A stretch of DNA of 64,000 nt, taken from positions 362 through 64,361 of the forward strand of contig CALKLQ010000055.1 in the NCBI GenBank assembly GCA_937992055.1. Direction: 5' to 3'. The notes beneath the pieces were generated by a model that ran no database searches, was not told the DNA's origin, and saw only the letters and a program-made list of their open reading frames with translations. This stretch comes from an uncultured Clostridia bacterium. GTDB lineage: Bacteria; Bacillota; Clostridia; Christensenellales; UBA1242. Positions 5,275-45,445 of the stretch are shown here, in pieces; position 1 is the stretch's first letter, and each line of letters begins with the position of its first letter. Position numbers and translations under genes: made by a program.

Positions 5275-5289
5275 TTGCTTCTCCTATTT

Positions 5290-8200: not shown

Positions 8201-8979
8201 AAGAATAAGTTCAAATAATTTCTAGTTGATTCGGCTGATGGAACATCGGTTGGTCTTGTTTTTCTTGCAAATTCTAACAGAGCTTCTTCCTGTGTGTTTT
8301 GAGGCTCTTTGTCAAGAACGTTTTTAACATATTCATTATCGCCAAAAAGTTTTAAAATTTCTTCACGAGTAAAACCAAAACATTTCAAGAAAAGACCAAG
8401 GGTAATTTTGCTACCCCTATCCAAAACAACTTTTAATATTTCATTTGCACCCTGTTCAATTTCAATCCACATTCCTCTTGTAGGAATAAGTTGGGCGCGA
8501 AGGGTGGAATTATTTTCCTTTTCTCTTGTAAAATACGCACTAGGGGAACGAACAACTTGACTTACAACTACCCTTTCAATTCCATTAAACACAAAAGAAC
8601 CCTCATTTGTCATGAAAGGAATATCACCCAAGAAAACTTCTTGTTCAACCGCCTCGCCAGTTTCTTCAACAACAAAACGGGCTTTAACCTTGAGAGGCAC
8701 GGTGTAAGAAGCCCCCCTTCTTTTGCATTCTTTAATAGAATATTTTGGAGGTGTAGATAAATCTATACCAGTGATATATAATTTTGCCTTTCCACTATAA
8801 TCACTGATAGGAGAAAATTCCTCAAGAACTCTTTTGATTCCATCATCGAGGAATTCTTTATATGCATTCTTTTGAATTTCCAACAAGTCTGGTATTGGAA
8901 GAATGTCATCAAGTTTAGAAAATGAATATCTTGTGTTTTTACCAGATTTGATTTTCTTTAAGCATGAAACTTCTTGCAT
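5290..8979 (-). CDS. rpoB: DNA-directed RNA polymerase subunit beta
   Basis: 1229 aa with conserved blocks ([43 protein letters not shown]). Canonical rpoB-rpoC order. Acidic C-terminal tail. Confidence 0.98.
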
Positions 8980-9114: not shown

Positions 9115-9143
9115 ATTTTATCATGTTATTGCCCTATTGTCAA
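9115..9143 (-). promoter_or_regulatory. sigma-A type promoter for rpoBC (TTGACA-17-TAAAAT)
   Basis: On the minus strand TTGACA (9143..9138), an exactly 17-nt spacer, then TAAAAT (9120..9115), about 135 nt upstream of the rpoB ATG. Sequence match only. Confidence 0.5.
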
Positions 9144-9365
9144 CAGTTTAAACATTTTTTTTGAAAGTTATCTTATCTTTTTTCTTTGATAAGAGAATAT
9201 CACAAAAACATAAAAATGTCAACTTTGAAAATAAAATTTACATAAACAAATAAATCATTAGCAAAACAAACTTAAATAATAATGAAAAGATAAAACTCTT
9301 TATGAATATTACAAAAAACATTTTAATATTAATTAAAAGTCTAAACACTACTATAAATCAAACTT

Positions 9366-9405
9366 TATTTTTAAGAAAAGTGCACTTGCAATTTGCAAAT
9401 GCACT
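9366..9405 (-). terminator. rho-independent terminator after the 3277-aa gene
   Basis: Arms 9379..9390 (agtgcacttgca) and 9394..9405 (tgcaaatgcact) form a 12-bp stem with one mismatch and a 3-nt loop. The stem starts at the TAG stop and is followed on the minus strand by TTTCTTAAAAA. Confidence 0.55.
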
Positions 9406-12400
9406 AGTCTTTTACCTCTTTGATTCCATTTATTTTGTTCATAATTGTTGCCTTATCTAACTCAGTCCCCACCCCCATATCAATTTTTTTGAAATAAACT
9501 TTTTCAGAATCATTTTGATTTTGAGAGATATCAACATAAGCCCCATTAAAATAATATCTTAAAGCAAAATTATTGTTGTCATCTTCTAAAGAAATCGTTC
9601 CAAAATTATCTTTTCTTGTCAAATATCCTAAATCTTGTGATGTGATATCCAAATCAAATTCCCCACCAAAGAAATAGCCATAATTTAATATATACTCTTC
9701 GTTATAACCTTTAAGATCTCTCATATTCATTTTAAACTGAGCCAAACTGTAGCAGTTTTCAAATTCCAAGGAGATTTCTTTATCATTAATAAATTTTCCT
9801 ACAAATCCTCCAAGATATGCGTTGAAATTGCCACCATAAATGTCACTTGAAACATTTAAAAGCCCGTCAACGAAACAATTTGAAAACTTAAAAGTTGGTG
9901 TGTTATCATTCACTTCAATTTCACCTATTAGTCCTCCTGCAATTGAGCTATTGACATCATCGTTTTTAACAACAACTTTACCTTTTTCAAAATATGAATT
10001 GTTTATTATAGAGTATGATGTTTCATCACTTGAAGGCCAAGCATTTAAGAAACCATGTTTATTATAAGACAAATTTGCACTTGGAGTAATACATATTCGA
10101 CCTACAAGCCCACCAGCGATTTCGACACTGCTTAAATCTGAACTAAAATAGCATTTGTCAATTTCTCCTCCAATCATTTCACCAACTAAGCCACCTACAA
10201 CGCCTATAGTACTTGATTGAATAGTTGCATCAACACTTATATTTTCCAGCCTTCCTTCACCACTTTCTCTAATCGCACTTTCAATGTTTAAGTCTGTTCC
10301 AAACAGACCAACAACTCCACCTATAGCATATGGGACAAAAGGAATGGTTTTGAAAAGTCCAGAAATTTCATAATTTGAGGTAATGGAAATATCTTTTAAA
10401 GTTCCAAAACACTCACCAGCAATTATTCCACCATAAACAGCTGGTTGAACAAATTGACCATCAATAAGTTCCAGGTCAATGTTTTGTATAACAACGCCAT
10501 TGCCAACACCACCAAACAAAAGTCCAGCAAATTCAGCCATAGATGCAATTTTTCCATTAATATTTACAAAACTCACATCTCCTTCACCAGCAAGAACACC
10601 TGCAACACTTCCAGAATAAGAGAGAGTTGTTAAACTTAAAGATGAATGGGTTTTATTAAAGAAGTAACTAGAGATTGTTGCATTATCATCTTTTTTATTT
10701 TGCAAAACAGCTTCGCTTCTAAATGTGGCATTCGCAGAAATAGAGGAATTAATATTATAAATTTTATAATTTCCAATAGCTCGTCCAACAACACCGCCAA
10801 CAATATTTTTACCAAGCACCACAATGGCCTTTCCATCAGTTGTTGTACCTTCTACATCAACATTAAATAGGTATCCTGAGTCTAAGGTTCCAGATAAAGC
10901 ACCCACACAATTAGCATTAGGCAAATTGATATATTTTGGAACGAGTATTAAATTTTTAATACTCCCCACTTCACTAGAACCATTGCCTATTCTTGAAAAT
11001 AGTCCAGCAGAAGTTAGTGAGGAAAGCTCATCTATTACATATCCCTCTATTCTCATTCCATTGCCCTCTATATCACCTATAAAGGTGGTATTGTATAAGC
11101 TTGTTGAATAAAGGCCTTCTTGCTCATAATTGATGTTGGTTACTAATCTATAATAGTTAGAATTTAAATTTCCAATATTAGATTTTAATATTTTATTTTC
11201 AAATTCATATGCAGACATGATTATATATGGATTAAATACACTGCCTTGAGAATAATCACCGTTATTTTTATACGCATAGGTAATCTCACCGGTCTCTTCA
11301 TCAATATAGGTGTTCTCCATATCTAAAATTTGAGAAGATTCTACAATAACATTAGGAGAAATAAGCTCCGGTCTTCCTATATAGAAGGTTTTATTTTCAT
11401 TATTAAATTGACCTTGATAACTATTTTGTGGGAAGAACCAAATTCCCTTTGTAATTTCTCCATTTTGAGAAAAGGCAAAAGTTGAAAAGTTTTCCTCATT
11501 TGAGAAATCAGATATTTTAAATTCTGTCAAACCTTGAATAAATTTATTGCTTGTATTGATTGACATATTTAATTCAGTATCCGCCAAATAGTATGAATTT
11601 GAAATTTGTCCAGATGCATTGTCATAAACAAAGCCATAGCTTTCTTGTGAATTTGACTTAAGCATACATGTTGAAAAAGTGTTAAAAATGCTTCCATTAT
11701 TAACAAAAACAAATCCCGAATTTTTTGAAGAACTTAATATAGGAATATCACTATAAGAGTTTTGAATTTTTCCATTATTTTCATAAACAAATCCCGCAAC
11801 CTCGGTTGAGGAACGAACCACACTACTAGTATCATTTGCATAAATAGTGGTAATAAAGCCTGAATGTATTCCGCTTATATAGCTGTTTAAAATTTTACCT
11901 TTTCCATTTTCGTTTGTTGCGTTATATACAACAAAGCCTGCCGTTTTATTTGTTCCCTCATTTGATGTATTAACAATAAGCGATTCATTTACATAACAGC
12001 TTGAAATATTCCCCTCATTATATCCCACGAACCCTGCCAAATTCGATGAGGCAGTCAAATTAACGCAAACTCTAGAATTTGTAATATAACCACTGTTCAA
12101 ACCTACAAGTCCGGCAACATAATTAGATGAACCCGCTTCTATGAAAGACACTTTAACATTTGCGTCAATAACTTCCACGCTACAGTTAGTAACAACACCT
12201 GCATTTTCGCCGGCTAATATGCCCACATAGTTTGTTCCGCCACTTTGAGATATACTAAATCGTAAACTATTATCTATTTTAATATTTAAATTTCTGACAA
12301 TAGATTTCTCTGCAATTTTGCTAAATATTCCTATTCTATCTAAATTTTCAAAAGATAAATTAGACGAAATAATTATTTGTTTATCATTTCCATCAAACCC

Positions 12401-15400
12401 TGCAATTTCAGCCGAAATTGGTTTGAAATCTGAAGGCAAGGTTAAATCATTTAGCAAAATGTAATAGCCTCCTTCCTCCATTGCAATAAAATCTTCATAA
12501 TTATTTACCGGAGTTGGGGCATCTATTGAGCTAAATTGATATATATTAAAAGCCCACTCTTCAGTTCGATTATAATACGCATCTGCATTTTCTTCAAAAG
12601 CTTTATGTTGAGGTTTGCCTCTTAAATATTCAAAGCCATATTTTACCCTAAATTTATAAGCAGGATTATCTGAAGAATGAATTTGAAGTGGTGAGAAAAT
12701 ATAACCCGTGCTCTGTCTTCCAGTTATAATGAAATAGCCTGAAGATGCCTGTGCACTAACACCATTATCTGTTATTCTAGTCCACATATTTTCTGCATAA
12801 CTATATGTTCCATTATCATTTAGACTACCAATTTGATACTCCCATATAGCATTTTTATTGATTGAATTTTCAAATTCTTGCTTTGATGCCAAAACATCTT
12901 GCAAAGAAGGAACAAATTCTGAATTTATTGAATTTTGCAATTTGGTTTCAAGCACATAAGTATTTCCTAATGCAACACTTGTTTTTCCTTCATAAACATT
13001 ATTAACCAAGTATCCACCAGATAAAAGTGCTATATCCACAACCACAAAATTTAGCGTATATGGAACACTTGTAACTGTTTGAGAATCAACCCTTTTTGTT
13101 CCATAAATTGAAAGTTGCCCTAAAACCCCCTCAAGATTTGTTGGATAAACAACATCTGTTGAAGCAATATGAAGTTTTTTGTTCTTCAAGTCTACATTTA
13201 CAATATCTTTTGAACTGTTCATTACAATTTCGTCTTCCAAGTAACCTTCGGAAGAAACTGTAAAGTCATAGGTTTGACCTTTTACAAGATAAACCTTTTT
13301 ATCTTGACCATCATTGAATAGCTGTTTGTTTAAAATTTCAAAACTAACATCAATTGTGTATTTAATTGTAATATTTCTTGTTTGCTTTAAAATAAGACCG
13401 CTCTCATCAAAAGTTTCAACAACAAATTCAATTTTATCTCCGTTATAACAATTAGCCCTGCTAGCATCATATTTAATCAAAATTTCATTGTCTAAATCTA
13501 AAATCTGCGACCTTGAAAGTCTGATTCCATTAGGCAAAATTATTGCTCCAGATTTTACCAGACCATCCTCGTCAATCCATGACATAATTGCATTAAGTTG
13601 AGAGTTGTCACTGTTCCATTTTATTTCAGCATAATCAAACTCTGAATTTAAAGGAGCAAATTCAATCTTTAAGAAATTAGGGTCATTTGGAGATAAATAA
13701 TTATTTGTAGAATTTCCACCACCTATTTGTAAATTACCTTCTTTATCAAATAATTCATATGAATTAATTAATATTTTTTCTAAAGATTGTTTAGTTAAGT
13801 TAACTTCTAAACCATATTCACAATTATTTTTTGCTCTAAAATTTATGAAATATTGACCTTTATAATTTTCATTAAAATTATCATTAAATTTTGCTTCATA
13901 AAAATAATTTATTTTATTTAATTTTAAAATTTCATTTAAATTAATAATTTCATTATTATCATTTTTTAATTCAAATTGTATTTCTTTTTTATAGACCTGT
14001 TTAAATAGGTCATAAATATTAATAATCTGTGAATTATAATACACTTCTGGGGCATTATCTAAATTAATTTCACTTAAAAACAATTTTCCATTATCAGTAA
14101 ACAAATATATTTCTCTTGAAATATCATCACTTGTTAAAGTTAAAATAAATTTTGATTTTTCTTTATAATTATTCGCCACAGAAATTTCATATTTTCTATT
14201 TTTTTCTGTCACATTAAAATAATTATCTTTTTTATAATTTTCATCAACTTTAACACTGAAAATATCTAGATTTTCATTAAAGTCATCGGTTAACACCTCT
14301 ACTTCAATTTCAAAAGTGTCGTTAGGTTCGATATTGTTAAACGCTTCGACTTTGCTTGTAATCTTTTCTGCGCCCTTTTTGTGTTCAACGTTAAATATTA
14401 AATTATTATCATAAAGTTTTTCATTACTATAATAATTGTTATTGAAAAATACGCTATATTTGGCATTGAGTGAAAAATTTTGCATTCCAGCATCACCTAT
14501 TGCCTCCAACAAATACAAATTTTCCCCAATCTTGTTAAACTGAACATGGGCAGAATCATTTTGTGAATCGTCAAAGATTACAATTTCATTGCCTGAAATA
14601 ATTTCAATGGAATAACCATTTAAAACAACCTCACTTGCCTTGGTTTGCAAAGTTACAGGAAGATTTTGTCCCTCATAAATTGTAATTGTCTTTCCTATAG
14701 TCAAAAGGTTGTCTTGTGTTTGAGAAGAGGTCAAATATAAACTATAATCGTCTATTTTTCTAACAACATAGACAAGAACATCTACACTATTTTTTTGATT
14801 TAAGTTTGAAACCACTTTAATTCTTACAATCCCAGTTCCATTTATAGAAAGCAATCCATTGTTCGTTATACTAACTATATTTTTGTCAAAAGAAATTAAC
14901 GTTACCTCGCCATCTACACTAAAAGGCAGTTCTTGGATATTTAAATTATTTAATTTTTCCTGATCTATAGAATTTTTAGCTTGATAATAATAAGCATAAG
15001 CCATTTTAGGTGCATCAGCATTGTCACAATTTAAAGCATAAGGAGTTTTCCCATTAATTGTAACATGTTCAACTAACAACTGAGTGTCTTGCATCTCAAA
15101 TTTTTCTTGATAAAATCTATCTGCACCGCCTAATAATAAATCTCCATAATAATTATCATAATTAGAAGCTGTATTAGGCTCCACATATTCTCTAGTAATG
15201 TAAGTTTCTGACTTTAACGTTGCGTCTTCAATTTCGCCACCATTCTCATTTGTTCCAAAAACTTGAACTTTAGGATTTTTAGAAACTATATAAGGATCAT
15301 CATCTGTTCCATTGCCAGTTATATTTAAACCAAAGTTCTTAGAATAAATCAAGCTTAAATCATTTCCCAAAGATGTTGCATCATCAATATTTTGTAATAC

Positions 15401-18400
15401 GCTATTAATAATGCTAGCATTATTTTCACTAAAAGCAACCAAACCGGCCAAATAGGCATCTTTTGAAGCATCTGTCACTTCGCCCAAACTTTTAACTTTT
15501 ACCCTGCTTACTATTCTGTCTAACTTACCACTATTAATTCCTAATATACCGCCTAAATAGTTATATGCCTGATTTGCCACCTCTATTTTTCCAAGTACTT
15601 TCAAATAATTTGAATAATTTTTTTCGTCCAACACATCTGCTTGAGCAAATATATTTCCATCAGAGCTGTTTTGACCAGCAATTGCGCCAATTGCAAAGCA
15701 GGTATTTTCCGCAGAATTTGGTACATTCTTTTCACCAATTACACTGATATTAGTTATTATATAATAATTCTCATTGTTATAAAGCTTAGTATAAAAATTT
15801 TCAACTCTTTCAATATTTCCATTGTTTTTTCCCGCAACACCGCCAATATAACTTCGAGTTTGCTTTCCTTGCATAGCATAAGAAACTTTTAAAACTGAAT
15901 CTTGCAAAGAGAAAAGGTTAAAATTATTATATTCATATTGTTTTTCTAAATATTGATAATTTCCTCCAATATTTGTTTGAATTTTACCGTTATTTTCGCC
16001 AACAATTCCACCTATCAAGAGCTCGTTTGAGGTTGAAACTTTTACATTACTATTTAATAATTCAACATGAATGTTTTGAATTTCGCCATTATTTTCCCCT
16101 GCTAAAAATCCTATTTTAGCCTTGTTTTTTAGTTCAATTTCAATTTTACCACTCAAAGTTAAATTAGAAATTTTTCCTTCTTTTGCAATTTTAGTAAAAA
16201 GACCACCATATGAAGTTCCATCAATCTCTTTAGAATTGTTTATATTCAGGCCAACTATTGAACCTTGTCCAAGACCATTGATTGAACCACTAAATTCACC
16301 CAATGGAGCAAAATTTATTGCACTTAAATCTATTTTAGAAGTAATCAAATAGTGCTTATCAAGTCCAAATTTAGAAATATTTAAAAGCTCTTCCGCAGTT
16401 GAAATTATAAAAGGTGCATTTTCACTTCCATCTCCTACAATCACAGGTATTTTTAACGAGTTATTAGGATTTTCTATACTATTAGAAATGCTACTTTTAG
16501 GAATTATAATTAAATTACCGGTTCCGCCGCCATTATTAGAATATGAAAGTCTTACACCATTATTATTTAGTGATTCTATTCCAACAATGTTTGAAGATGA
16601 ATTTGAAGTTGGCTCAAATATAAATATTAAATCTTTATGCACTGCATCAAGTGGAAGAATATAGGTATACAAATCTACATTTTGATGAGTTGGAGAAAGA
16701 TATATTTGTTGTAAATAATTTGAGAGTCTAACCTCACTTACTTGAATATATTTTTGAGGAACAATCTTAAATGCTGCCGTATAGTTTTCATTAAAGTAAT
16801 TTACATTGGCATATATATAAAATTCTTCTGGCAAATCTTTTCCTGAATAATTCAATATAAACTCACCAGAGCTTAAGTTATAAGAACCAAGATTGTTTAT
16901 GTATAATATCTTTTCACCTACATTATAATTAGAAGGTTTAGATGCTGATAACTCTATAGTAATATTGGTATCGTTTAATAATTCAATATCTTTTGTTAAA
17001 GAAAATAGTTTATTATCCGTTTTTGATAAATCTTTGTAATAGTATCCTAAGTCGCCTTCACTATAAAGTGCAATTGACTTTTTTTCAAATTCCACACCTT
17101 CAAGAGGAACATAAGCCCTAACATTTAAGCTTCCTTCGAAATAATTTTCGTTATAATTTTCTTGGTTTACATCTGGAACTTCTAACACAAAATCATTAAC
17201 AACTTTAACTAAAATAGAATAATCTAAGACCTTTCCTTTAAATCCAGCTTTATCACATGCAATTGTGACAAACAAATTTTTTTCATCAAGTTCAATTTTA
17301 GCCCCTTCATCTTGCGCTTTAGAAAAATTTAAAGAGTATAACAATGGATTGGAAAGATTATAATTTTCTGGCTCAGTTTTTAAAATCAATTGTAAATTAG
17401 CATTATATGAATCATTTTCTAATGACAATCTAACATCAACATCAGTCAGGTTGTCACCCAAATAAGTTTTATCAGACAAATACGATGAATTACTTTCGTC
17501 AACATCAAGTTTTAATGCCTGTAATTTTTCAATTACTGTTACCATAAAATCTCTAAAAACACCATTAGGAAGAACAATTCTCCAAGTGCTCTCTCCAGCT
17601 TTTTTAGGTATAAAATTTAAAACCATATGTTTGTTAGAATTTATAATTTCATCTTGCAACTGATTAATTTCTATTGTGTCTGCTTGATTTGATAAGCAGT
17701 AGATTGAGCAGTTTTCAATGAACGCATTTTGGTCGTTAACATAAAATCCTTTAAAGACCTTAGGACCTTCTTCTAAGCTAATAAAAAGTCCATCTTTTGA
17801 ATTATATTTATCTTGTAAAGCCAAGGCGTTAGCACCTGTTTTAACTATATATGAGATTGAGGTAGAAATTTCATCTTGGTTATTTATTCCTTGCTGCTCG
17901 CCCCAAATTAAGTTAAAACTCAAGGTGATTTTTTTCCCATTAGTTTGTTTTATTCCTCTAGCTATCACAGGGAAAGAGGTATTTGTTATTTGCGCAGTAT
18001 TTTCATTTTCAAAAATCGAAATGCCTGCAAGTGTAAAATTAATATAATCATTAACATTTCCACTAAGGCCTTCTTCCAAAGTTGCAACAACCTCTATTTT
18101 ATCAAAAATAGAGTTATATGGGAAAATTGAGATGTTTTGAACCGACTTGACGGTTGAATAGGCACCATCAAACAACACTTGTTCAAACGGCAAATCAGAA
18201 TCATTTAAACGAATCTCGTTTGGAGCCTGCTCAACGATCAAATCAAAAGTTCTATAAACCGCATATTCTTCAAAACCATAATAATATATCTTAAATTCAA
18301 TTGTTGTCTTTCCACTATTTAAACTTTGAAGGTCAAAATCAAAGATAATATTGTTGTTTTCAAGATAGGATTTAGATATATCAAACTCAGAACACTGTAC

Positions 18401-19237: not shown

Positions 19238-19255
19238 ATTTTCTCCTAAATTTAA

Positions 19256-31200: not shown

Positions 31201-34200
31201 AGGAAATTTCATGCTTAATGCCATCTGGTGTTAAGTATGCAAAGACAAATTTCATTGCTTGTTCACCAGTAGAAAATGCCTTAATTTTTAAAGTTGTACC
31301 AAAAATAGTTTCACTTGTTAATCCATCCCCAGAATAAATAAAGTTGAAGTGTGGGTTAGAAATTACATTTCCATCTTGACTTAAAACTTTAGTTGAAGAG
31401 CCATCAGAATTCACATAATATAAATTATTTAAAAAGTTTTTATATTTTACATTTTCATTATCATTTTCATGATAGTTTAATATATATTGCCTATCTGAAT
31501 TAGGAATTTCTTCCCTAAACAAGTAATTGTGATCATTGAAGGTTGAAACAAGTCTATTTAAAGAATCTATAGCCTCAAGAATACTATCATCTAAAATATT
31601 AGAATCATCCCATTTGGTTGTTTCAAACTTGAAATCTAAATTTTTTTCAATGCCAACATAAGCGTTTAGAACATCGGTATTGTTATCTAGTGTAATATTG
31701 TCCACTAAAAAGTCGACTACAACAACTTTGACACTAGAGGAAGCTTCAACCAAGTTCCCATCTATTACTTTAGAAACAATAGCTTTAACATAAAAGATAG
31801 GTTCTTGCATATTTAAAAATTTTGCATCTTCAGAAATATATAGTTTGCATGTATAGATTTTTACATTTCTGTCATTATCGATAGTTGATGTAATTTCACC
31901 TAAAGAAATTCCATAAAGTTCACCATATCCTTCAGCAAATGTAGTCAAACTAGAAATTTCTTGGTCTTTCTGAACTATTGCCTGCAAAGTTGCACTAGTT
32001 CCCTTTGCCATCACAATTTGTTCTTCATCATTTATAGTAAGCTTTGCCTCAGTTACCGGTCTGCTAACCACATTAAAAGTAGATTCTTTAATAATATCAC
32101 CAGAAGATTTAACAATTCTTGTTTTGAGGGTAAATAAAGTATCAACTTTGACAGTTGAAGGAATTGTCATCAAAACAAAATAGGTTCCAATATTATCAGT
32201 TCCAAAATTTTGTTTTAAAATTCTTATCCCGTTTTCTATTCTTACAAAACCAGTGTTTTCTCTCAAATATCCCTGGTTGTTTTCTTTTAAAAGTTGTAAA
32301 AATATTTTGTTTGAATCTACAGAATTGCTTGTAATTTCTACATATTCAAAGCTAGCTTGATGTGGATAAACATTAATCTTTAACAAGCTACTTTGACCAG
32401 GAGAAATAACATTATTAGGCTCATTAGTAAAAATGTAACCGCTTTCTTTTTCCCAGTTTACATAAGCATGACTAGAAAATGTCAATTTTTCTATAATCAA
32501 CGAATCTATTACAACTTTAACATCATCACAAACCTCGTTTACGCTTTTTGCACTCACATTTATTTTAAGTTCCAAACTACCAAAGTCAAGAGAATAAAAG
32601 TCTTGAAGCATTATAAGTCTTGTTTTAAATGTAATTTTAAAATAATCGAAGTTTTCTAATTCATCGTAATTCTTTTCAGTCCAAACTCCATCTTCCAAAA
32701 CCTCATAACTTTTAATTACAGAAGAGATTTTCCCATTTTCACCTTCAAACATTGCATTGTAAGGGGTGTCATAATCTAGCATGGTTGAACCATTTTTATC
32801 AGATATTAAAATATCAATATTATCATTTTTATCATCTGTATATAGCACACTTTCAAAAATTATTTCATCTTTTGGCAGGAAATGAGAAAAGTCATGATAA
32901 TTTATTTCAATAGAATCAGCACCCAAAAAGGTTGAAACAACAAAATAATGTGCAAATTTCTGTCTTAACAGTCCATTAACATAAGAATTTTCATTTTCCA
33001 AAACAAGATTAACATCAAATCTAACTGATTTTTCTTCAAAATTTGTAGTATCTATTACATGTTGATTGCCATTTGAAATTACAAAATTTTTAACAGAATC
33101 TTCAAAAACCACTTTTTGATTTTGATTTGTTTTTAATTTAATTACCTTTCCTAAAGCTATTCTTTGCTCATCAATGGATGATAAAACATTATCTGTTGAA
33201 TTCTTTTTAATTTTAATTGCAGAATTATCATTTAAAACTTCACCATTATAAAGTATCTCAAAATTTGATATGTTATATATTATTTTTAAAGCATATTCTG
33301 TTTGTAAACTAAAATCGTATTTTGAGAAGATAGAAACTTTAACTTCTCCACATTTTTCTAATATTATAGAATTATTAGTTATAGCTAACGCTTTTCCATC
33401 TCCATCAGTTACAACCACTCTTAATCCATTAATATTTTCTTTTCCAAATAATTTAGAAAAAGATATCGTATTCCAACTTCTAATAACACTATCCTCACTT
33501 GAAGTTGTCGTAATATCGCTTTCTTTTTCATAAAACATTAGAACAGCAAATTTATTTTCCTCATCCACCAAAACTTGGTTAGAATTTACAATCTTCAAAG
33601 AGTCAATTTTTTCAGCTTCATTTTGTAAAATTGTTGAAAGATAAGGATAACCCTCATTTTTATTTGCACTCGCCTTCCAAACCGAATTAGAACCAAATGA
33701 CAGTTTCCCATTATAATAACTTGCAAAATCATTTTGGAAAATATTTTTTCCATCTTTAAAATATTTTCCTGAACCATTTATGAATTTATAATATTGATTA
33801 TCATCATCAACTTCAAATAAGTAACAATCTTTAATATCTTGGCTAGAAATTTCACCATCATTTTTCCACTGTTCATCGGTTAAATTCGCTGAATTTGTTT
33901 TTGCAAAGCAATTAAAGATTCTCCCACTATTTTCTCCAGCTAATGCGGAAATAGTTACACCAATTAAACAATCTAGATCATGATAATTATAGCAATATGA
34001 ATTTGAAAGAACGGCATTAATAGCATTTTTACCTACCAAACCACCAACAATTGTGCCATTTAAAGATGCAACTGAATCATAAAATCTATAAAATTCTACC
34101 TGACATAGATTAATTTCTCCAAAATTTTCACCAGCGATACCACCAACAATACCATTGGAATTAATTTGCCCATAAAAACTACTTGATATGATTTGTCCAT

Positions 34201-37200
34201 AATTTTGAGCCACAATTCCACCTGAAATAGAAGAATTGTCAGTTAATGTGCTTGGCTTAAATTCATTATCTTGTAAATATGTATCGATGACAACATTTTT
34301 AATTGTTCCATAATTAATATTAGCAACAAAACCACGACCAGAAACCTCACCTAATATAATCAAATCTTGCACAATAGCACTTGAGTTTAGCGTGTTAAAA
34401 ATGGTTTTAGTAGTTGTAATAGTTTTTGGCGACTGCCCTTCCAAACAACCATAAAGTCCACCACTAAAATTTTCAATTTTCCAGCCATTTGATATTGTTA
34501 CATCTTGCATCAAAGTATAATGAAGAGAGGTGTCTTTTATTTCATTTAAATCATTTATTCTAATTGAGGTTGTTCTAGATTTTCCATCTGCAACAATAAT
34601 TCTAATTTTTTTAGCCACATCTAAGTTGTCATTCAAAATAGGCTGACCTTTTTCATCAGTTGTGTAAGCATCTTGTGGGGCAACAATCACATATCCAGAA
34701 CCACCATTTTTTGCCCTGATTAATCCAGTATTTGCGTCTACAGAAATAAAGTCTGAAGAAGTTGAAAGGTCTGGAACTATACTAAAAACTAAATTTTTAT
34801 TAAAAGCAGATAAATTTTCAACACTTGCATCAATCTTGAATGACGAATTTTTATTAAGTTCAAGATAAATACCTTCTTCTTCATCAACATTATTTAATCT
34901 AATGCCATTTACCCTTTCAGCATTTCTTGAAAGCACTCTAACAACAACATTTTTTTCCAATCCAAATTCATTAGCTTTAAAGATAAAATAACCGTCGTTA
35001 CTATAATCACCTTTTTCATTTGTCAAAGTATTGGCAACAACAGAAAGGATACCAGTTTGTTCATCAAAGTTCCAAGAAAAATAATCTCCATTATTTCCAA
35101 GCCCGCTAGTGCTGCATACAATTTTGTTATACGTTGCCGGCAATTTATTTTCATTTACAAGAATTTTAACAGAGGTTTTTGACAAATTTTGGTTGAAGTA
35201 ACCAACCGAATCAAGAGCAAACAAATCAATAGTTGAAACAGATGAAGTAAAAGAAACTATAGGATTATAAATTTCCACAAAGAAATATTTGGTAACAAAT
35301 TTGTCGTTTACAAAAGTATAACTATATTCATCATCTTCCCTGACAAGTTCGCTTCCCTTGAGCACCACTTCAACCCATATCTTTCCTTCCTCCACTCCAG
35401 AAAGTTGGGAAAAGATTTGTAAGTTATTTAAATTTAAAAGATTTGTGAGTTCACTAAAATTACCAGTTGGAATTTGATTGTCAAAAGTTTCATATTCTAA
35501 ATCATCACTCTTCTTCTCCATAAATTTATATGAAACTTCAAAGCTTGCGCCTTTAGCATCAAAACTTATATTTGAAGAGTTTCCATTAGTAATTGCAAGG
35601 GCAAACTCTGAACCCAAAACATTGTCATATTTCAAATAGCCAATCGAATCATTATTTTGTGGTGTTTGAGTAATGATTGTCACATCATCAGAAAGAGGAA
35701 CAACAAGTTCTACAGGGGCAAATATTCTTCGACCATTTCCATATGAAATCTCAATTGAGCCCATCTGATTTTGTTTGGTTGCGTTTGATTTTAAATCAAC
35801 TTTAAAAATTTGTCCAATCACTTTGTTTTCAGAATCTAGCACTTCTGAAACTTGAATGACATCACCAAAAGAAACACCTTCACCCTTAACAATAAAATTC
35901 TCTTTCTTTACATTTGCAGGCTCAACATAAAAGAAAATAGTTTCTGTTGTTTGTTTTGAATTATCAAGATAAAAATGTGGCTCATCTATCTGAACATTAT
36001 CTCCAGCATAAAACTTAAGAGAATTTGCACCTTCGTACAAATTTAACATTAGTGTGCATTCAATCACATTTTCAGTTCCTGAATAAAAGTCGGCAGAAAA
36101 GGATGATGTAATTAAAAGTTCAACCTTTTCATTTGAAGATTTTTTAGCTCTTACATAGAAACCATTGTCACCCTCAATTATGTAGTGGTTGTTCTCATCT
36201 TTTTCCAACCTATTTCCATGATTGTCAAAAAGTTCTATTTTATCAAGATTTTCAGATGTTCCACTTAAATAAAGTGTTTTATATTTTTCCAACACAGTTG
36301 TTGGAAGTGTTTGCAATTCAACATACCTTCCATAAGCATTTACATAGTTTGTATAAACGTCCATCTCAACCACGCCTTTGTTTGAAATAGTTTGTCCATC
36401 AACAACTATGCTTTTTACTATGTCATAAGAAAAAATTTGTGTCTTAAATTCCTGTGTGGAATATAGATAATTATAACCATCATATTTCAAATCAAAATAC
36501 AAATAGCAATCATCTCCAACCCTTGTTCCAGAAGTAATCAACACATCTAGTTTTATAGTATTGGCAGTTTTTGTGTAAGTTTTTTTAACAATAGTTGCAA
36601 GAGTGTCATTTGTCAGCCTTGGTTCTATTATTATTTCTTTGTCCGCATATGTAAGCTCTAAACTTACTAAAGCTTGTGCAAATCCCTCATCATTGTGAGC
36701 AAGATAGATTGATTCGCCGCTTTTTAAATCTATGGCATCTTGTGTTTGTTGATAAGAAAGTTTAAAATCATCACTTGTAAAATCAAACTTGGTCAAAACA
36801 TCAAAATCAAGATTTAATGGAGCAATCTCTCTATTTGTGGAAGTGACAACAATGGATATAGTTTTTAAACTTTGTGGGATATCTTCATCAATTTCTAAAT
36901 AATAATTATCATTTTCTTTTAAAAGCGCTATTCCATCTTGAGAATTCAATAAATTTAATTCAACATCTTTTTGTTTTGTATTTGAAGGATTAAAATTGAC
37001 ATATTTAGAAACATCAATTAAATTTTTTTCACCCTTAATAACATAGGGTTGAACTGCAAGTTTTTGTGTAAGACTCGTAACGGGTTGAACAACATCAACA
37101 TGTATCTTTGTGGAAATATTATTTTCAAGAGTTTGAACTTTTACATCTAAAGAGCATTGAACCAAGCCCTTAATTTTAACTTCTGTTTTTCCATCACCCA

Positions 37201-37492
37201 AATAATTTGTTTCAACGATACTAACCTTGTTTGAATCTGGTGAAAAGAAAACTGAAGATAAAACCTTTTTACTTCCAGAAACCGTTGCAACAACTGAAAC
37301 CGTATCATCTTGGGTTTCGCCAAGAAAAATTGTCACATTAGATTTATCAACAGTAAGTTTCATGTTTTTATAAGGGTCAGTGCAAGCAACCAATAAACTA
37401 GAAAAAGCAAAAAACATGGCAAATAAAATTACCATTAAAATTTTTGATTTTATCCCCTCAAAATTTTTTTTCATCATTCCTCCAAAATTCAA
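19256..37492 (-). CDS. giant surface lipoprotein with Ig-like modules, GLUG-type repeats and a poly-Gly block (about 6070 aa)
   Basis: Uninterrupted 18.2-kb ORF. The track start at 37492 is TTG. ATG ATG at 37477/37474 sits right after GGAGGA, so the exact start is uncertain within about 18 nt. Signal peptide plus lipobox ...FFAFSSLLVAC. At least four blocks of GLUG-like repeats (VGGIAGENFGEINLC, AGFVYTNNGKISSS, GGIVGFARGNSSL...). Gly-rich block GGNGGNGGAGGSGG...GAGGGGGAGGNGG. Two C-terminal Ig-like domains (EYLMGEELD...GTFTAWV..., NYLVGETIS...GTFTALV...). Confidence 0.85.
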   Translation of the reverse strand: MNFGGMMKKNFEGIKSKILMVILFAMFFAFSSLLVACTDPYKNMKLTVDKSNVTIFLGETQDDTVSVVATVSGSKKVLSSVFFSPDSNKVSIVETNYLGDGKTEVKIKGLVQCSLDVKVQTLENNISTKIHVDVVQPVTSLTQKLAVQPYVIKGEKNLIDVSKYVNFNPSNTKQKDVELNLLNSQDGIALLKENDNYYLEIDEDIPQSLKTISIVVTSTNREIAPLNLDFDVLTKFDFTSDDFKLSYQQTQDAIDLKSGESIYLAHNDEGFAQALVSLELTYADKEIIIEPRLTNDTLATIVKKTYTKTANTIKLDVLITSGTRVGDDCYLYFDLKYDGYNYLYSTQEFKTQIFSYDIVKSIVVDGQTISNKGVVEMDVYTNYVNAYGRYVELQTLPTTVLEKYKTLYLSGTSENLDKIELFDNHGNRLEKDENNHYIIEGDNGFYVRAKKSSNEKVELLITSSFSADFYSGTENVIECTLMLNLYEGANSLKFYAGDNVQIDEPHFYLDNSKQTTETIFFYVEPANVKKENFIVKGEGVSFGDVIQVSEVLDSENKVIGQIFKVDLKSNATKQNQMGSIEISYGNGRRIFAPVELVVPLSDDVTIITQTPQNNDSIGYLKYDNVLGSEFALAITNGNSSNISFDAKGASFEVSYKFMEKKSDDLEYETFDNQIPTGNFSELTNLLNLNNLQIFSQLSGVEEGKIWVEVVLKGSELVREDDEYSYTFVNDKFVTKYFFVEIYNPIVSFTSSVSTIDLFALDSVGYFNQNLSKTSVKILVNENKLPATYNKIVCSTSGLGNNGDYFSWNFDEQTGILSVVANTLTNEKGDYSNDGYFIFKANEFGLEKNVVVRVLSRNAERVNGIRLNNVDEEEGIYLELNKNSSFKIDASVENLSAFNKNLVFSIVPDLSTSSDFISVDANTGLIRAKNGGSGYVIVAPQDAYTTDEKGQPILNDNLDVAKKIRIIVADGKSRTTSIRINDLNEIKDTSLHYTLMQDVTISNGWKIENFSGGLYGCLEGQSPKTITTTKTIFNTLNSSAIVQDLIILGEVSGRGFVANINYGTIKNVVIDTYLQDNEFKPSTLTDNSSISGGIVAQNYGQIISSSFYGQINSNGIVGGIAGENFGEINLCQVEFYRFYDSVASLNGTIVGGLVGKNAINAVLSNSYCYNYHDLDCLIGVTISALAGENSGRIFNCFAKTNSANLTDEQWKNDGEISSQDIKDCYLFEVDDDNQYYKFINGSGKYFKDGKNIFQNDFASYYNGKLSFGSNSVWKASANKNEGYPYLSTILQNEAEKIDSLKIVNSNQVLVDEENKFAVLMFYEKESDITTTSSEDSVIRSWNTISFSKLFGKENINGLRVVVTDGDGKALAITNNSIILEKCGEVKVSIFSKYDFSLQTEYALKIIYNISNFEILYNGEVLNDNSAIKIKKNSTDNVLSSIDEQRIALGKVIKLKTNQNQKVVFEDSVKNFVISNGNQHVIDTTNFEEKSVRFDVNLVLENENSYVNGLLRQKFAHYFVVSTFLGADSIEINYHDFSHFLPKDEIIFESVLYTDDKNDNIDILISDKNGSTMLDYDTPYNAMFEGENGKISSVIKSYEVLEDGVWTEKNYDELENFDYFKITFKTRLIMLQDFYSLDFGSLELKINVSAKSVNEVCDDVKVVIDSLIIEKLTFSSHAYVNWEKESGYIFTNEPNNVISPGQSSLLKINVYPHQASFEYVEITSNSVDSNKIFLQLLKENNQGYLRENTGFVRIENGIRILKQNFGTDNIGTYFVLMTIPSTVKVDTLFTLKTRIVKSSGDIIKESTFNVVSRPVTEAKLTINDEEQIVMAKGTSATLQAIVQKDQEISSLTTFAEGYGELYGISLGEITSTIDNDRNVKIYTCKLYISEDAKFLNMQEPIFYVKAIVSKVIDGNLVEASSSVKVVVVDFLVDNITLDNNTDVLNAYVGIEKNLDFKFETTKWDDSNILDDSILEAIDSLNRLVSTFNDHNYLFREEIPNSDRQYILNYHENDNENVKYKNFLNNLYYVNSDGSSTKVLSQDGNVISNPHFNFIYSGDGLTSETIFGTTLKIKAFSTGEQAMKFVFAYLTPDGIKHEISFNFIIKISTYTDEDKPVQISTAEDFYAIANETQAQDYILMNDLELTLHTPFDTTKINSFDGNNRVITIRSFDMAQRESSSIQLALFSTVTSNTTLKNVTVNYYHLNNLVIDTSIFKTIELAGFALSNTGIITNCHVLAIETNSNLPRPSGDIGLNLNYNIGQIGSGINSTLAGFVLNNNGVITNSRVGGEEFEVARATSISALSQGVHELDNFTLSAQGNIAGFVYTNNGKISSSFANKIDIKNNSTAGLDTISAGFVGYNTSGDISLSYAKGAYSDYQELKATGTAISTNSIGAGFAFNNNSNISNCYSNIMLRDVSNTSGRNSAGFVYVNSGNIEQCYSSSLIENSKTTQMDFSGVDDYGNLLNTGNITNSYYYNPKSSDSSASDMEQTYSSGVLRVETLVSSDIFYGFSFASVNSQDGVWTMTSSRGPELISANEIAVSSRYIVSNDDGSDFTFVYEEGYEYGSSKNPILIKSADEFNEVFGNSNSSAIKEYYNLSNNTVFGNYRLIDDIDLSKISGEQENGKLSSSNMTLYGGTFEGNNLNIENLELVAPANLQQISFGLFSKIENNAIFKNTNITIIGISAGNIQNVGAVAGILSDSKIVNVKLSAVYGLSGNILGQNVVGGIVGFARGNSSLINLSVSDLHVTADFYNDNIERQPYVRFAESSQIDNGALSYVGGIAGIVDIYSTDFFADSVYSSDRIMSFSQIASLKTAGAFQIKGGTAGGVLGYLGLNSACRDLSVEISRTNNDFTQKIIAYKFAAGGIIGENFGDVTQSKIEHSREIQDLIENNVSSYYNKYSDNKGYLDLFVASSTESYSPLFVGGLIGQTFSGNISNSYSRANVYANAKFVGGLVGGIGDFVYLNNSPKNLGRNYFDQVYAFGDVYSTKNDGLAGGLFGFVEYIGESINEENSISTIIINGANAVNFFNREYSDNSLIDNGDFYTLKNVYDYYASTFYNGEFVNADNYDKEVALMSLTEDNFSDDRNRILNFVISNFKVDGKVYEPNRSIYLKTGEESKKIGSKLESFNSITNPSVDGNYIDVAFRNNNWDLEKWERNTNWLLPRIVFTVSSSVYYIRTSSDLYLMEKYPDKTFIIIGTGLSEKGEKVYVDCSDIEKLDIKNFRGVLKGYMPERTNPLYPQDGRPLFGLKNLNISDAMINNASNGAVFSDFIMLDCHVNNQDDAETASAILVNSAQGVVFKNLIIENCYIDTVNNNAALVVGEAENSLFDTIDINNNLGRDMVTQGCLKNSKTLNSALIVAKIGGSRTTNIKNIVINNRNKDYGINVNPTNIQFENSEVNSGLIVGSSESGIVKFEYELQDEQSDNKPIINGETKIFVANNSTNENPKQNINIGSIAGKLSMSTFNINGFTAIGKSNLVVLGSFENSNLGGLVGLIKNSISIKNNENSNNHFEISNCIEYSDSNSTGNCNLGGIVALSEGSVTASKIKVSAYKQGNISTKKDINLGGVVGCARKNLNLNNLIFMKSFDFNISSDNASQGNFGGLVGLFDYIENQVETKSIIKNCYSFSKFDVTKFKGKLSFGGAIAGSDNTDQNSIEISESYFANDLTYKTYTDQEYKLGGIIGYCKGYVGVSNIVSGKGVSINNNILYGNITQQVDSLLGVEIFAGGVVGLGSSNANLINNIVLTTIEQTKLPDVTKNHVRALVGNGAYGKESFGNYYCSQVTLSTDSNLNEFNQEIVLSTNLKYSSVLEKIYGIDNLINIELDDSCSDFGHKLRPVEIGNSWNSFTESKEDNTISSGGKIFFRLTKDISFSGESFNLNNYGNVESKNFALVGDGFTISIDNQNGRIFDEIPQNSFVSGISILVSSQIYMPDTYDGVDVGEGSKKYIVRDENEVIIAEYEKIYAPLSAVNNGIVFACAIKGQPQEQANGTDEKYDSRAKIYANSRFFGGLVGINTGLISDSLTEVELVNIAKTVTTEKDGIVIVNECITSGFVAVNHGYIANSYSSGVINSPNGSVYAFNKDAVKRVGEDELPLGNVRSCFSVAQVSNSGNYVEENNVINNGFVFGAGADKTCFYDVYATGVSDNTNAIRLITSQMNKGFEECSILLSKNYLMNLDLFKNSSNKINYASYISDNFVFNGLTNYGYPSFGNSYASDDYNYLKIEGFNNQNQILVGNIGIFRLASTSTMQSLNGLDNCKNIVLINNIKVTDAMGLVNDSDFKEYDNSNFEAIKEVTRINLDGNNQFISGIKIGSNSNSFKINDEYYGIFESITNSKVSNLIISEGNLIVNSETNSCYVGALAGKLNDVYLRNVKNLGFNVKVEGSKITYAAGIAGEILNSEVENVVSSASVISTSNNKDAENNIVCYAGGLFGLQKGCHVSNCENQGTIIAGSECISNAYSAGITARVEDMGKMSNFDNCTNFGFVTSKVQDFDTIVEEYSGSDLNNGIKTYSENKQIYVSDEDVLYYTGLDLSAGSEKCYTSLKNVSINSAYEGAATPIQTIDSLQRKLAITFAKTDNFGISNAIANNFNIENCYNNGSVESTDGQKIVKVEIYNQQIVPAKTGPIYIQIQPYKQWSISDATLMYNYVYNNENRSQVYAESKYFRYTKDITEKVPVNGILSNDERLNSWTSLVNANMTVDFGVREDFILEYKKNTSESGAAIYEEEANSSIGDGSSEIDLEKLKEYLSDDAITYLQVEHNLISNKINYSYKDFVVSDNENSIASSIGDGSKDNPLLIQNEEQLLVALKENKSILLDKNYYSLGGIDTFDNSENIYAGLLFGNDSLIGFETQNQISLLKEISVDGEIEGLKIHNLNYGSSDASPLCNTNEGKINNVTTFGAIGNYKTKVKGETIEGAISDSDKHFVTGLVQTNNGQISNSTNNMLLFGTKGRNGIELGQDGISANYLAGIAGKTTGNIINCFSFGSFVGADGGNGRDGGTGTHGKDANLENGIYAEDGTDGGNGGHGGNASVIGGVVGLITAEDKTLDISGGNFGIIISGRGGNGGNGGAGGSGGFADFKMSAFDYEIAPAGAGGGGGAGGNGGSVVVGKVAGISNIKVNDLSSNYLFERYQKPGMAGQGGRGGQGGNGVMNVGSAMSIAGKLAFGSGVLSNVISNCNVGYAGGGGGAGGNGYHGNTAEALSNSYLSLQTNNGFVATRGESGQRVNDGKVIDSNYNGAIRASGGKGGLGSTNGGDGGNSQNFKKNFHWFLGESVGTSLVDWIIKCSFDFNFKQYDCFGSAGSSSALNELNVQIDGANPIGFSTSALNIENEVCKVESLSELSLALSLFDVYNKDANDNYQNFTTIQIQNDFGSTESPLKLIDGMIVPKDCIIDGNGKIIHYSASGRNIFLFEEINGAVKNLNIYCEITSLDAKIEKGTDLFTNKLGEGGTIRGCSLKNGSTIQSNLYKQLYMAKYKAYNLLNNLILFEKEAPFDGLGTANKPFKVKSNNFKDFVDLVNVCDDRVNYVYSLTENITVEKNEDDFVLDYFYGTLDGSKMGLDSSIMFAVAPNEEGAQEAYAGFIKYNYGTLTDLKIDGSLSQTSYAMVNYGTIKNCVTKTTATIKNDAKVELAGGICIINRGDIINCTNQATVTSLSDAGGICVYNFGNILDDGIAKETYNRGNINAGNGQDGYIIFEGSEINEIIYSKQGGDAAGIAVYNAGNIKNACNTGTIRAGKGGNGFIEGDIIFNSENGGNSSGICVYNAMVYDIDDESLNFANLNYISEENALLYGCQNTGNVIAGNGGDSSHVSMIAGNGGDASGIVCFNYLTGKVYKNGQLTLEDMTKLGSIKVASNSGNITAGNSGKDKNTNLSGIGGNAGAISSSILNQIVYKEGETTYSYNQSGQIKAGEGKSSGNVIRFINPTNSDIMLYVNTLQVDLNKSEYLMGEELDAVVYFIDSEGNKRELTTAEYQIINFSSSSVGTFTAWVSHENNGVIYTQKFTYSVNSAILTGEYKRNYLVGETISTENMTFKYYDNGIKEVEVSLDMIEGFDSSVEGTFTALVRYKVGDKIYSAYLNYTVA

Positions 37493-37528: not shown

Positions 37529-37550
37529 TATACTCTCTAAAGAGAGTATA
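37529..37550. promoter_or_regulatory. 22-bp perfect palindrome overlapping the -10 box (operator candidate)
   Basis: tatactctct-aa-agagagtata. The 10-nt arms are exact reverse complements. The right arm contains the -10 hexamer of the giant-operon promoter. Confidence 0.45.
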
Positions 37551-37573
37551 AATAAATTTAAAATTCAAGTCAA
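37545..37573 (-). promoter_or_regulatory. sigma-A type promoter for the giant-gene operon (TTGACT-17-TATACT)
   Basis: Minus strand: TTGACT (37573..37568), a 17-nt spacer, then TATACT (37550..37545), roughly 55-70 nt upstream of the candidate start codons. Confidence 0.5.
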
Positions 37574-45433: not shown

Positions 45434-45445
45434 AGCACTAAATCG

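Follow-up and report, generated by a model that had tools for sequence, protein, structure and literature searches.

What kind of proteins are encoded by the two giant reading frames, together 28 kb, that lie directly upstream of rpoBC in an uncultured Clostridia bacterium, and are the frames genuine? We analysed a stretch of 64,000 nucleotides (nt) of contig CALKLQ010000055.1 (assembly GCA_937992055.1), hereafter the window, in which the two genes, here called A and B, stand in tandem. A and B represent an unannotated, large family of paired, predicted giant surface lipoproteins, which falls within the known class of giant bacterial surface or adhesin proteins. Most likely they act as surface fibres or adhesins, anchored by a lipid and binding a target outside the cell, a reading that we hold with moderate confidence.

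Gene integrity and lipoprotein signals

Both open reading frames (ORFs) run uninterrupted on the minus strand, A at 19256..37492 (6,078 amino acids (aa) from a TTG) and B at 9404..19237 (3,277 aa from an ATG). A preliminary description of this DNA had reported two uninterrupted giant ORFs of ~6070 and 3277 aa upstream of rpoBC, and the ORF listing, the translations and the NCBIfam matches to rpoB and rpoC confirmed it. The translation of A from the TTG at 37492 begins LNFGGMMKKNF. Because a GGAGGA box lies just 5' of the two ATGs, the second of them, at 37474, is likely the true start, which gives a protein of ~6,072 aa. Frames of 18.2 kb (A) and 9.8 kb (B) in DNA of 30% G+C cannot have arisen by chance. 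The 18-nt gap with a ribosome-binding site (RBS) noted earlier between the two genes was also found, and contains AGGAG. The genes and their signals are as follows.

19256..37474, minus strand: gene A, giant lipoprotein of ~6,072 aa; the mechanical ORF extends to TTG 37492 (ORF listing, translation)
37382..37474, minus strand: signal peptide and lipobox of A, LLVA-C, Cys37 in TTG numbering (translation)
19238..19255, minus strand: A-B spacer of 18 nt, AGGAG being the RBS of B (sequence inspection)
9404..19237, minus strand: gene B, giant lipoprotein of 3,277 aa (ORF listing, translation)
19169..19237, minus strand: signal peptide and lipobox of B, FFSA-C, Cys23 (translation, conserved in homologues)

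The N-terminal translations of A (MMKKNFEGIKSKILMVILFAMFFAFSSLLVA-C, ending FSSLLVA-C) and of B (MKKIYICLMGMILAFTGLFFSA-C, ending TGLFFSA-C) both present a lipoprotein signal, taken here as a charged n-region, a hydrophobic h-region and [LVI][ASTVI][GAS]-C. In A, a KK..K.K n-region is followed by ILMVILFAMFFAFSSLLVA-C, and in B, MKK is followed by IYICLMGMILAFTGLFFSA-C; these signal peptides are the sole strongly hydrophobic segments of either protein. The lipobox was present in all 11 of the first homologues and, as a regular expression, in 119 of 123 full-length representatives, six A-type proteins among them. Three of the four misses carry xYGC or xCGC instead, so that the count lies at ~119-122 of 123. 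A and B are both predicted to be lipoproteins, as the signal peptides and lipoboxes (LLVA-C and FFSA-C) of the preliminary description had indicated. Neither an LPxTG motif (LP.[TSA]G) nor a C-terminal hydrophobic segment was found in A or B, and neither lgt nor lspA within the 64-kb window. The class of sortase-anchored adhesins (MSCRAMM/SRRP) was rejected, since there is no LPXTG and the neighbours of the locus are ttcA, aspS and rpoB.

No tandem or dispersed DNA repeat longer than ~48 nt was found in the 28 kb, and A and B are only 24-27% identical; the usual source of mis-assembly in giant repeat genes is therefore not present. Moreover, a B protein without a single difference is encoded by at least four independent contigs, assembled from the metagenomes of different samples; every one of them has an A-type gene upstream and rpoB downstream, which together with the lack of long repeats makes mis-assembly unlikely. 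The opposite view, that the giant ORFs are assembly chimeras or decaying, unexpressed pseudogenes, can point to one low-quality assembly of the same species (L090, SRR31464221), where B is broken into ORFs of 1,894 and 1,369 aa. However, this break is due to three error-like indels clustered inside ~60 nt (about 6100-6160) of a contig that is elsewhere 99.66% identical. It is most likely a sequencing error, the other possible reading being that it may reflect a strain-level inactivation. The orthologues of the giants are intact in several species, and the ratio of nonsynonymous to synonymous substitution rates (dN/dS) is well under 1. Considering these points together with the identical B contigs and the repeat scan, the chance that the ORFs are artefacts or pseudogenes appears negligible. 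Repeat-driven mis-assembly in particular was rejected on the basis of the repeat scans, the A/B identity, the independent contigs and the indel analysis of L090.

A and B are kept under purifying selection. In the comparison with L081, a sister genome, B has a dN/dS of 0.13, the C-terminal half of A (its extension) one of 0.21 and rpoB one of 0.03; these values are approximate because dS is near saturation. Amino-acid identity to the same genome is 73% for B, 66% for that half of A and 96% for RpoB, and the A and B proteins change 8-11 times faster than RpoB.

Modules and folds of the two proteins

The C-terminal part of B (residues 2215-3200) was modelled with AlphaFold2 (AF2) from a ten-member family alignment (model md829fb36206f) and gave an all-beta solenoid with a predicted local distance difference test score (pLDDT) of 82.3 and a predicted template modelling score (pTM) of 0.82. 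The Foldseek search of the PDB returned right-handed parallel beta-helices, among which 3n6z ('putative IgA1 protease' BACOVA_03286) is the sole match of probability 1.0. This match (probability 1.00) and the pLDDT of 82.3 identify the fold of the model as a GLUG-like right-handed beta-helix. The IgA1 proteases 7uvk, 7uvl and 6xjb come next in the list, 7uvk and 7uvl with probabilities of 0.6-0.84 (0.84 for 7uvl). We take 3n6z and the IgA1 proteases to carry GLUG. Weaker matches include PL6 lyases, GH28, GH55, phage tailspikes, SRRP binding regions and autotransporter passengers.

The N-terminal part of B (residues 24-935) was likewise modelled as an all-beta string of beta-sandwiches, with a mean pLDDT of 72. 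Foldseek gave 410 PDB matches at E<=1e-3, all of them tandem immunoglobulin (Ig) arrays, including titin I65-70, gp210, contactins, cadherins and the S-layer proteins SbsB, SbsC, Sap and EA1. The model is thus a tandem array of ~100-aa beta-sandwiches, and the N-terminal run of Ig-like modules proposed earlier was recovered in B, its presence in A being suggested by collinearity. A follows B over the first ~3,050 residues (A 17-313 = B 2-298, A 739-1101 = B 706-1086), and A 2094-2956 is 27% identical to B 2226-3048. By its sequence, A is a distant collinear paralogue of B that carries a ~3,000-aa C-terminal extension of degenerate solenoid modules, a relationship that the preliminary description did not contain.

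The helix modules were placed by hidden Markov models (HMMs) built from the family alignment, which found three in B (935-1290, 2234-2613 and 2660-3150) and at least eight in A. In the extension of A, weak HMM matches put solenoid modules at about 3450-3750, 3860-4226, 4266-4600, 4783-5300 and 5347-5900. The modules, all on the minus strand, are given below from the N- to the C-terminus of each protein.

34583..37381, minus: Ig-like beta-sandwich array of A, residues ~38-970 (collinearity; fold presumed from the B counterpart)
33623..34555, minus: beta-helix module 1 of A, residues ~980-1290, with GGIVAQNYGQI-type coils (motif count, family HMM)
31193..33622, minus: middle beta-rich region of A, residues 1291-2100, presumed Ig-like (sequence character, collinearity with B)
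29915..31174, minus: beta-helix module 2 of A, residues 2107-2526, opening KPVQISTAEDFYAI (HMM mod2, independent E-values 6.6e-23 and 2.8e-32)
28493..29821, minus: beta-helix module 3 of A, residues 2558-3000, opening NPILIKSADEFNEV (HMM mod3, independent E-value 2.3e-30)
19718..28045, minus: A-specific C-terminal extension, residues ~3150-5925, at least five degenerate solenoid modules (weak HMM matches)
21713..22540, minus: glycine-rich GGNGG/GGAGG stretch within the extension, A residues ~4985-5260 (repeat family D1)
19259..19705, minus: two Big_3-like Ig domains ending A, residues ~5930-6078 (Pfam Big_3 sub-threshold, two stretches)
16448..19168, minus: ~8 Ig-like beta-sandwich domains of B, residues 24-930 (AF2, Foldseek)
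15368..16435, minus: beta-helix module 1 of B, residues 935-1290, opening APFIISTAEELL (motif count, family HMM)
12548..15367, minus: middle beta-rich region of B, residues 1291-2230 (weak Big_2 match, E 0.066; putative fold)
11399..12538, minus: beta-helix module 2 of B, residues 2234-2613 (AF2, Foldseek)
9788..11260, minus: beta-helix module 3 of B, residues 2660-3150, opening NPYIIMSAYEF (HMM, AF2, Foldseek)
9407..9787, minus: poorly conserved C-terminal tail of B, residues 3151-3277 (mean identity to the family 0.14-0.26)

Sequence profiles recognize these modules poorly. Searched as whole or half proteins at E<=0.01, A and B gave no Pfam match; searched as 10 segments at E<=10, they gave only sub-threshold GLUG, Big_2 and Big_3 matches plus noise. 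GLUG (PF07581) reached at best 18.1 bits against a cut-off of 20.5 and was sub-threshold in 5 of the 10 segments, and the Big_x families also stayed below threshold (Big_3 19.4 bits against 21.2, Big_2 E 0.066, Big_8 E 3.8). NCBIfam gave nothing meaningful for A and B, and a PDB sequence search with B and both halves of A no match at E<=1. Among the ten aligned family members, four contain Pfam GLUG (best E 2.6e-8), and P0004 carries a precomputed PF07581 match. The GLUG-type repeats of the preliminary description are thus borne out by the fold of B and by these relatives, although A and B themselves fall below the Pfam threshold. The motifs given there hold loosely: the strict unit-opening expression matches only twice in A and twice in B, while GG[ILFVM][VAIL]G occurs 15 times in A and nine times in B. 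Across the family, the helix modules keep almost no invariant residues other than G, N, P or F, and what few charged positions are conserved belong to the cap motifs FDGNG, DIDY and EGNG. No RTX blocks were found, GGxGxD occurring once in A and nowhere in B. With this single match the glycine-rich stretch of A is not an RTX region, and the class of RTX giant adhesins of type I secretion systems (T1SS) was rejected.

Family, pairing and position beside rpoB

A word-indexed search with B returned 11 relatives, all metagenomic and unnamed. When the two helix modules nearest the C-terminus were used as a profile in an exhaustive search, 34,038 proteins passed E<=1e-3; at E<=1e-30 there remained 1,779 representatives, nearly all of them nameless lipoproteins of 3.1-3.9 thousand aa. 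Of the 150 top-scoring proteins, almost every one measures 3,043-4,060 aa (median 3,435) and is matched in the same part of its length, and a few are A-type proteins of 5,000-5,900 aa. 'Hypothetical protein' is the sole name recorded among the relatives. The word-indexed search with A 3101-6078 found only a fragment from the same species, a result that is no proof of a unique extension, since this glycine- and asparagine-rich query probably swamped the candidate list. Orthologous extensions of A were found by tblastn in L081, L087, L091 and L092; the orthologues of A in these genomes have identities of 66% (L081), about 32% (L087) and 29-37% (L091 and L092).

A relative of 5,663 aa from another organism (L085, 10001-26992) shows faint Peptidase_M26_N and GLUG matches. 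It is followed at 28754-34965 by He_PIG/Ig-domain proteins of 820 and 1,083 aa, in a separate giant-surface-protein locus that is not linked to rpoB.

The RpoB of the window is closest, at 72-87% identity, to that of uncultured gut Clostridia, namely Christensenellales, Ca. Caccovivens, Ca. Caccopulliclostridium, UBA11517 and UMGS and HGM metagenome-assembled genomes. These neighbours suggest that the organism belongs to the GTDB family UBA1242, in which Gilroy et al. place Caccovivens (= UBA11517) and Caccopulliclostridium, with type genomes of 1.0-1.1 Mb and 34-35% G+C (PMC8035907). According to Begmatov et al., most UBA1242 genomes are smaller than 1 Mb and lack many biosynthetic pathways as well as standard transporters; sporulation genes are reported, as is a lack of sugar transporters and of complete glycolysis (PMC12306168). 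An obligate symbiont or parasite lifestyle has been proposed for the family (PMC12306168), as has a dependence on other cells (PMC12306168, PMC13155120). The earlier guess of a streamlined genome fits these relatives and their genomes of about 1 Mb (PMC8035907, PMC12306168). If the membership holds, A and B would take roughly 3% of a ~1-Mb genome. Their G+C of 28-34% is similar to that of the flanks, which makes a foreign origin unlikely.

For the position of the genes, we compared those GTDB species representatives whose sequence reaches 3 kb or more beyond rpoB on its upstream side (n=71). In 50 of these related species the gene immediately before rpoB is of B type; it ends 180-1,100 nt from rpoB, and the rpoB-adjacent proteins have a median identity to B of 29%. 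The location beside rpoBC, which had been called unusual, has thus long been conserved in the lineage and is not an anomaly of one genome.

The other 21 species have no giant gene at the site and carry other surface-type or unrelated genes there. In L012 (5852-9481), L033 (8361-9683) and L041 (112-2508), BspA-type leucine-rich-repeat (LRR) or DUF285/LRR proteins lie immediately upstream of rpoB instead. The site behaves as a replaceable slot for surface proteins.

An A-type gene (about 5,500-6,070 aa) and a B-type gene (about 3,200-3,350 aa) stand in tandem in five lineages, next to rpoB in the window, L081 and L087, and at other chromosomal sites in L091 and L092. The upstream giants of L091 and L092 share 37% identity with A and 26% with B, and their collinearity with A reaches into part of its extension. 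This argues for an ancient A/B duplication, with a pair that would have stayed together even after relocation. The A+B pair thereby appears as a conserved unit in itself, a point that was also new relative to the preliminary description.

In L082, L083 and L093 a second layout recurs, in which an ATPase gene precedes a B-type gene (about 3,500 aa) and rpoBC. It encodes a membrane DUF87/P-loop_TraG (HerA/FtsK/VirB4-like) ATPase of ~900 aa, on the same strand and 10-370 nt upstream of the B-type gene. This ATPase may be a dedicated partner of the B-type giant; it was searched for in the window and none was found. A small PRC-barrel-like gene precedes it in distant relatives.

The elements around the giant genes in the window, and the ATPase genes of the second layout, are as follows.

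37545..37573, minus: promoter-like TTGACT-17-TATACT upstream of A (10/12 consensus positions)
37529..37550, minus: inverted repeat TATACTCTCT-TTAG-AGAGAGTATA, perfect over 9-10 bp, overlapping the -10 hexamer (flagged terminator-like)
9379..9405, minus: intrinsic-terminator-like hairpin, 12-bp stem and T-run, overlapping the B stop codon (terminator scan)
9115..9222, minus: two rpoB promoter-like sites, TTGACA-17-TATTCT and TTGACA-17-TAAAAT with an extended -10 TG (promoter scan)
1735..8979, minus: rpoB (5290..8979) and rpoC (1735..5274) (NCBIfam equivalogs)
L082 6971-9634, L083 7265-9991 and L093 917-3646, same strand as the B-type gene: DUF87/TraG-like ATPase

The preliminary description had placed A and B between one promoter and a terminator. 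The terminator stood: two terminator-like hairpins were seen downstream of B against 0.1 expected, the one at 9379..9405 overlapping its stop codon. For the promoter the evidence is weak, since seven promoter-like sites were seen in the AT-rich spacer upstream of A against 2.9 expected. The inverted repeat of TATACTCTCT and AGAGAGTATA could be an operator or a 5'-leader hairpin controlling the giant operon. Because of the strong terminator and the separate rpoB promoters, simple co-transcription of A-B with rpoBC is disfavoured, which suggests that rpoBC is transcribed apart. The Rfam scan of the window gave two tRNAs only, and no match in the A or rpoB leaders. The second terminator-like hairpin (AGGGCAATTTTGTTTTGCTCT and a T-run; 9032-9052, minus strand) lies in the rpoB leader, 3' of both rpoB promoter-like sites, and may be a transcription attenuator of rpoBC.

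As for the remaining genes, rpoC is followed by a tRNA-Thr(GGT) at 1527-1602 and short unannotated ORFs (1-1700), the usual rpsL-rpsG-fusA not being there, and no rplKAJL genes were found across the whole 64 kb; the ribosomal-protein/RNA-polymerase superoperon is broken up here. A family-2 glycosyltransferase gene (PgaC/IcaA/EpsU exopolysaccharide-synthase-like; 42247-43557, minus strand) lies ~5 kb upstream of A, between glyA and asnS, and its product may contribute to a surface polysaccharide. Further upstream, a phage-like cluster (45348-54431) adjoins tRNA-Leu(CAA) (45348-45433) and encodes a ParB-like protein (45511-46401), a phage GNAT-like domain protein (46356-47567), DUF4417 (52885-54000) and a Terminase_4 small terminase subunit (53931-54431). 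A satellite, or what remains of a prophage, is probably inserted here at the tRNA.

Proposed function and comparison with known systems

The reading of A and B as lipid-anchored fibres or adhesins is drawn from the lipobox, the Ig stalk, the rigid beta-helix modules, the lack of a catalytic signature, the fast but constrained evolution and the core status of the genes in a gut lineage that is proposed to depend on partners. Directly supported are gene integrity, lipobox, folds, family, synteny and selection, from which the following arrangement is proposed. Both proteins would cross the cytoplasmic membrane by the Sec pathway and receive a lipid at their N-terminal cysteine, which would fix them in its outer face. 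Some 8 Ig-like beta-sandwich domains would form a stalk that extends each protein through and past the wall, and rigid GLUG-type right-handed beta-helix modules would alternate with further beta-sandwich spacers. B would display three helix modules, and A the same three, at least five more in its ~3,000-aa extension and two terminal Big_3-like Ig domains. An Ig domain measures ~4 nm and a coil of a beta-helix ~0.48 nm; on these figures B would form a fibre of the order of 100 nm and A a longer one. The faces of the beta-helices would serve for binding, the probable targets being glycans or proteins on host mucus, on particles or on other cells, and the rapid sequence change would reflect surface exposure. 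Lipidation, surface display, fibre geometry, binding and a joint function of A and B are what we infer in this arrangement.

Several points weigh against it. No ligand-binding domain of known specificity was identified in A or B, so that the adhesion put forward in the preliminary description fits as a probable role and stays a deduction. Right-handed beta-helices also scaffold many glycan lyases and hydrolases, and the Foldseek matches of lowest E-value are PL6 alginate lyases, though with probabilities of at most 0.54 and template modelling (TM) scores of at most 0.16. The structure models cover B 24-935 and B 2215-3200 only. Finally, an adhesin role gives no explanation for the conserved linkage to rpoBC.

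The alternative that comes nearest is a structural envelope coat, S-layer- or spore-coat-like, which every cell would need and whose genes would be core genes kept by rpoBC. The constant length (median 3,435 aa), architecture and position across the family agree with such a coat, as do the overall purifying selection, the tandem Ig arrays similar to those of SbsB, SbsC, Sap and EA1, and the sporulation genes reported for UBA1242 (PMC12306168). Nevertheless, the Ig-array matches are generic, and Pfam, even at E<=10, gave no domain for wall binding or lattice formation such as SLH or CWB2, on which ground the Firmicutes S-layer class was set aside. The gene is moreover not at the site in 21 of the 71 species, where other surface proteins substitute, and divergence as fast as this (median identity 29%) typifies exposed interaction proteins more than a coat. 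We consider a coat unlikely. It is less likely still, and in our view improbable, that the beta-helix modules are enzymatic (lyases, glycoside hydrolases or depolymerases) and A and B cell-bound multi-catalytic glycan degraders with Ig domains as spacers. Beta-helix carbohydrate-active enzymes (CAZymes) do fill most of the Foldseek list, together with depolymerases of phages (GH28, GH55, tailspikes, and the PL6 lyases 8bwk and 5gkd at E ~6e-4). These CAZyme-type matches, however, have probabilities of at most 0.54-0.72 and TM scores of at most 0.19, whereas probability 1.0 is reached by 3n6z alone, a GLUG helix that is non-catalytic. Searches of Pfam, NCBIfam and PDB sequences returned no CAZyme, the conserved residues appear to be structural and not to form a charged groove, and UBA1242 reportedly has neither sugar transporters nor complete glycolysis (PMC12306168).

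An IgA1-protease-like (M26) or other host-protein-cleaving, virulence-type factor would account for the structural likeness to 3n6z and to the N-terminal beta-helix of 7uvk, 7uvl and 6xjb, and for the faint Peptidase_M26_N and GLUG matches of the 5,663-aa relative. That likeness is, however, confined to the non-catalytic helix, and neither protein contains HExxH or, by Pfam or NCBIfam, a peptidase domain. The reading is largely refuted already and we regard it as very improbable, the class of IgA1-specific metalloproteases being rejected on the same grounds. Polymorphic toxins of the CdiA/Rhs type were also rejected: the variable tail of B is followed directly by the terminator and rpoB with no immunity gene, and A ends in Big_3-like domains.

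The fibre or adhesin reading may be carried one step further. A and B could be the attachment organ of an obligately partner-dependent epibiont, whose fibres of at least 100 nm would tether UBA1242 cells to a gut microbe or to host cells. A comparable epibiont lifestyle has been proposed for Patescibacteria. We regard the idea as speculative and rather doubtful. The conserved A+B pair would then form one heteromeric apparatus, and the DUF87/TraG-like ATPase of other branches would serve its assembly or an associated transfer function. If true, an attachment apparatus of an epibiotic lifestyle would raise the significance of A and B for UBA1242.

UBA1242 are widespread, uncultured, genome-reduced gut Clostridia of animals and humans. 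Because the family is large (1,779 representatives) and keeps its length, architecture, lipid anchor and chromosomal position, A and B are the most obvious candidates for contact of these cells with their surroundings. A fast-evolving surface gene beside the universal marker rpoB offers a handle for strain typing, and A and B could serve in antibody- or fluorescence in situ hybridization (FISH)-guided enrichment of cells and in glycan- or cell-binding assays of single modules. The family merits a curated profile, since current Pfam and NCBIfam models miss A and B entirely.

Among known systems, the closest structural relatives, judging from the model of B, are beta-helices of the GLUG type (PF07581) in IgA1-protease-like proteins, namely the N-terminal domain of the streptococcal/Gemella IgA1 proteases (6xjb and 7uvk) and BACOVA_03286 (3n6z), with which A and B share a right-handed helix of GG[ILV][VA]G-x-N-x-G-x-I coils behind an N-terminal cap. 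They differ in that the copies of A and B are under the Pfam threshold, that there is no M26 domain and no HExxH, that long Ig arrays separate several helix modules, and that the predicted anchor is a lipid and not LPXTG or an N-terminal transmembrane segment. The beta-solenoid as an adhesive surface on a long stalk is likewise found in the SRRP binding regions of L. reuteri (5nxk/5ny0), in Hbp (1wxr) and in Ag43 (7koh). The Foldseek matches of B to SRRPs and autotransporters are weak (probability 0.04-0.35), and unlike SRRPs, autotransporters and TpsA proteins, A and B have no serine-rich repeats, nearby accessory Sec genes, LPXTG or outer-membrane translocator.

The giant adhesins Ebh, SiiE and those of the LapA/MpIBP type, from Firmicutes and Gram-negatives, are beads-on-a-string Ig-like arrays of several thousand residues that project a binding region from the cell. 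Their tandem repeats are nearly identical, and a C-terminal transmembrane segment, LPXTG or a T1SS retention module serves as their anchor, whereas A and B have no near-identical repeats and a predicted N-terminal lipid anchor. The giants of the Omnitrophota, ultra-small bacteria with an episymbiotic or predatory life, resemble A and B as beta-helix-rich giant proteins of small-genome, probably partner-dependent bacteria (bioRxiv 10.1101/2023.11.21.568195). They exceed 30,000 aa and have many transmembrane regions, SecA-like and other enzymatic domains and antiparallel beta-helices (same source); A and B are far smaller, and none of those features was seen in them. With predicted bacterial proteins of up to 85,804 aa (bioRxiv 10.1101/2023.11.21.568195), the earlier placing of a ~6070-aa protein among the largest bacterial products was overstated.

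The closest biological analogue, by its overall organization, appears to be the Giant1-5 cluster of Apilactobacillus kunkeei, consecutive genes for proteins of 3,000-8,000 aa with beta-solenoid domains that take 6% of a 1.5-Mb genome (PMC12863079). No sequence relationship of A and B to Giant1-5 was detected. Giant1-4 have one N-terminal SRRP-like solenoid, in contrast to the several GLUG-type helices along the chains of A and B, and the latter also differ from Giant1-5 by the N-terminal lipobox and by a pair that appears ancient, family-wide and often linked to rpoBC. Nevertheless, both systems consist of consecutive genes for elongated beta-solenoid proteins, extracellular in A. kunkeei and probably so here, which evolve fast in a host-associated bacterium and take several percent of a small (~1-1.5 Mb) Firmicute genome.

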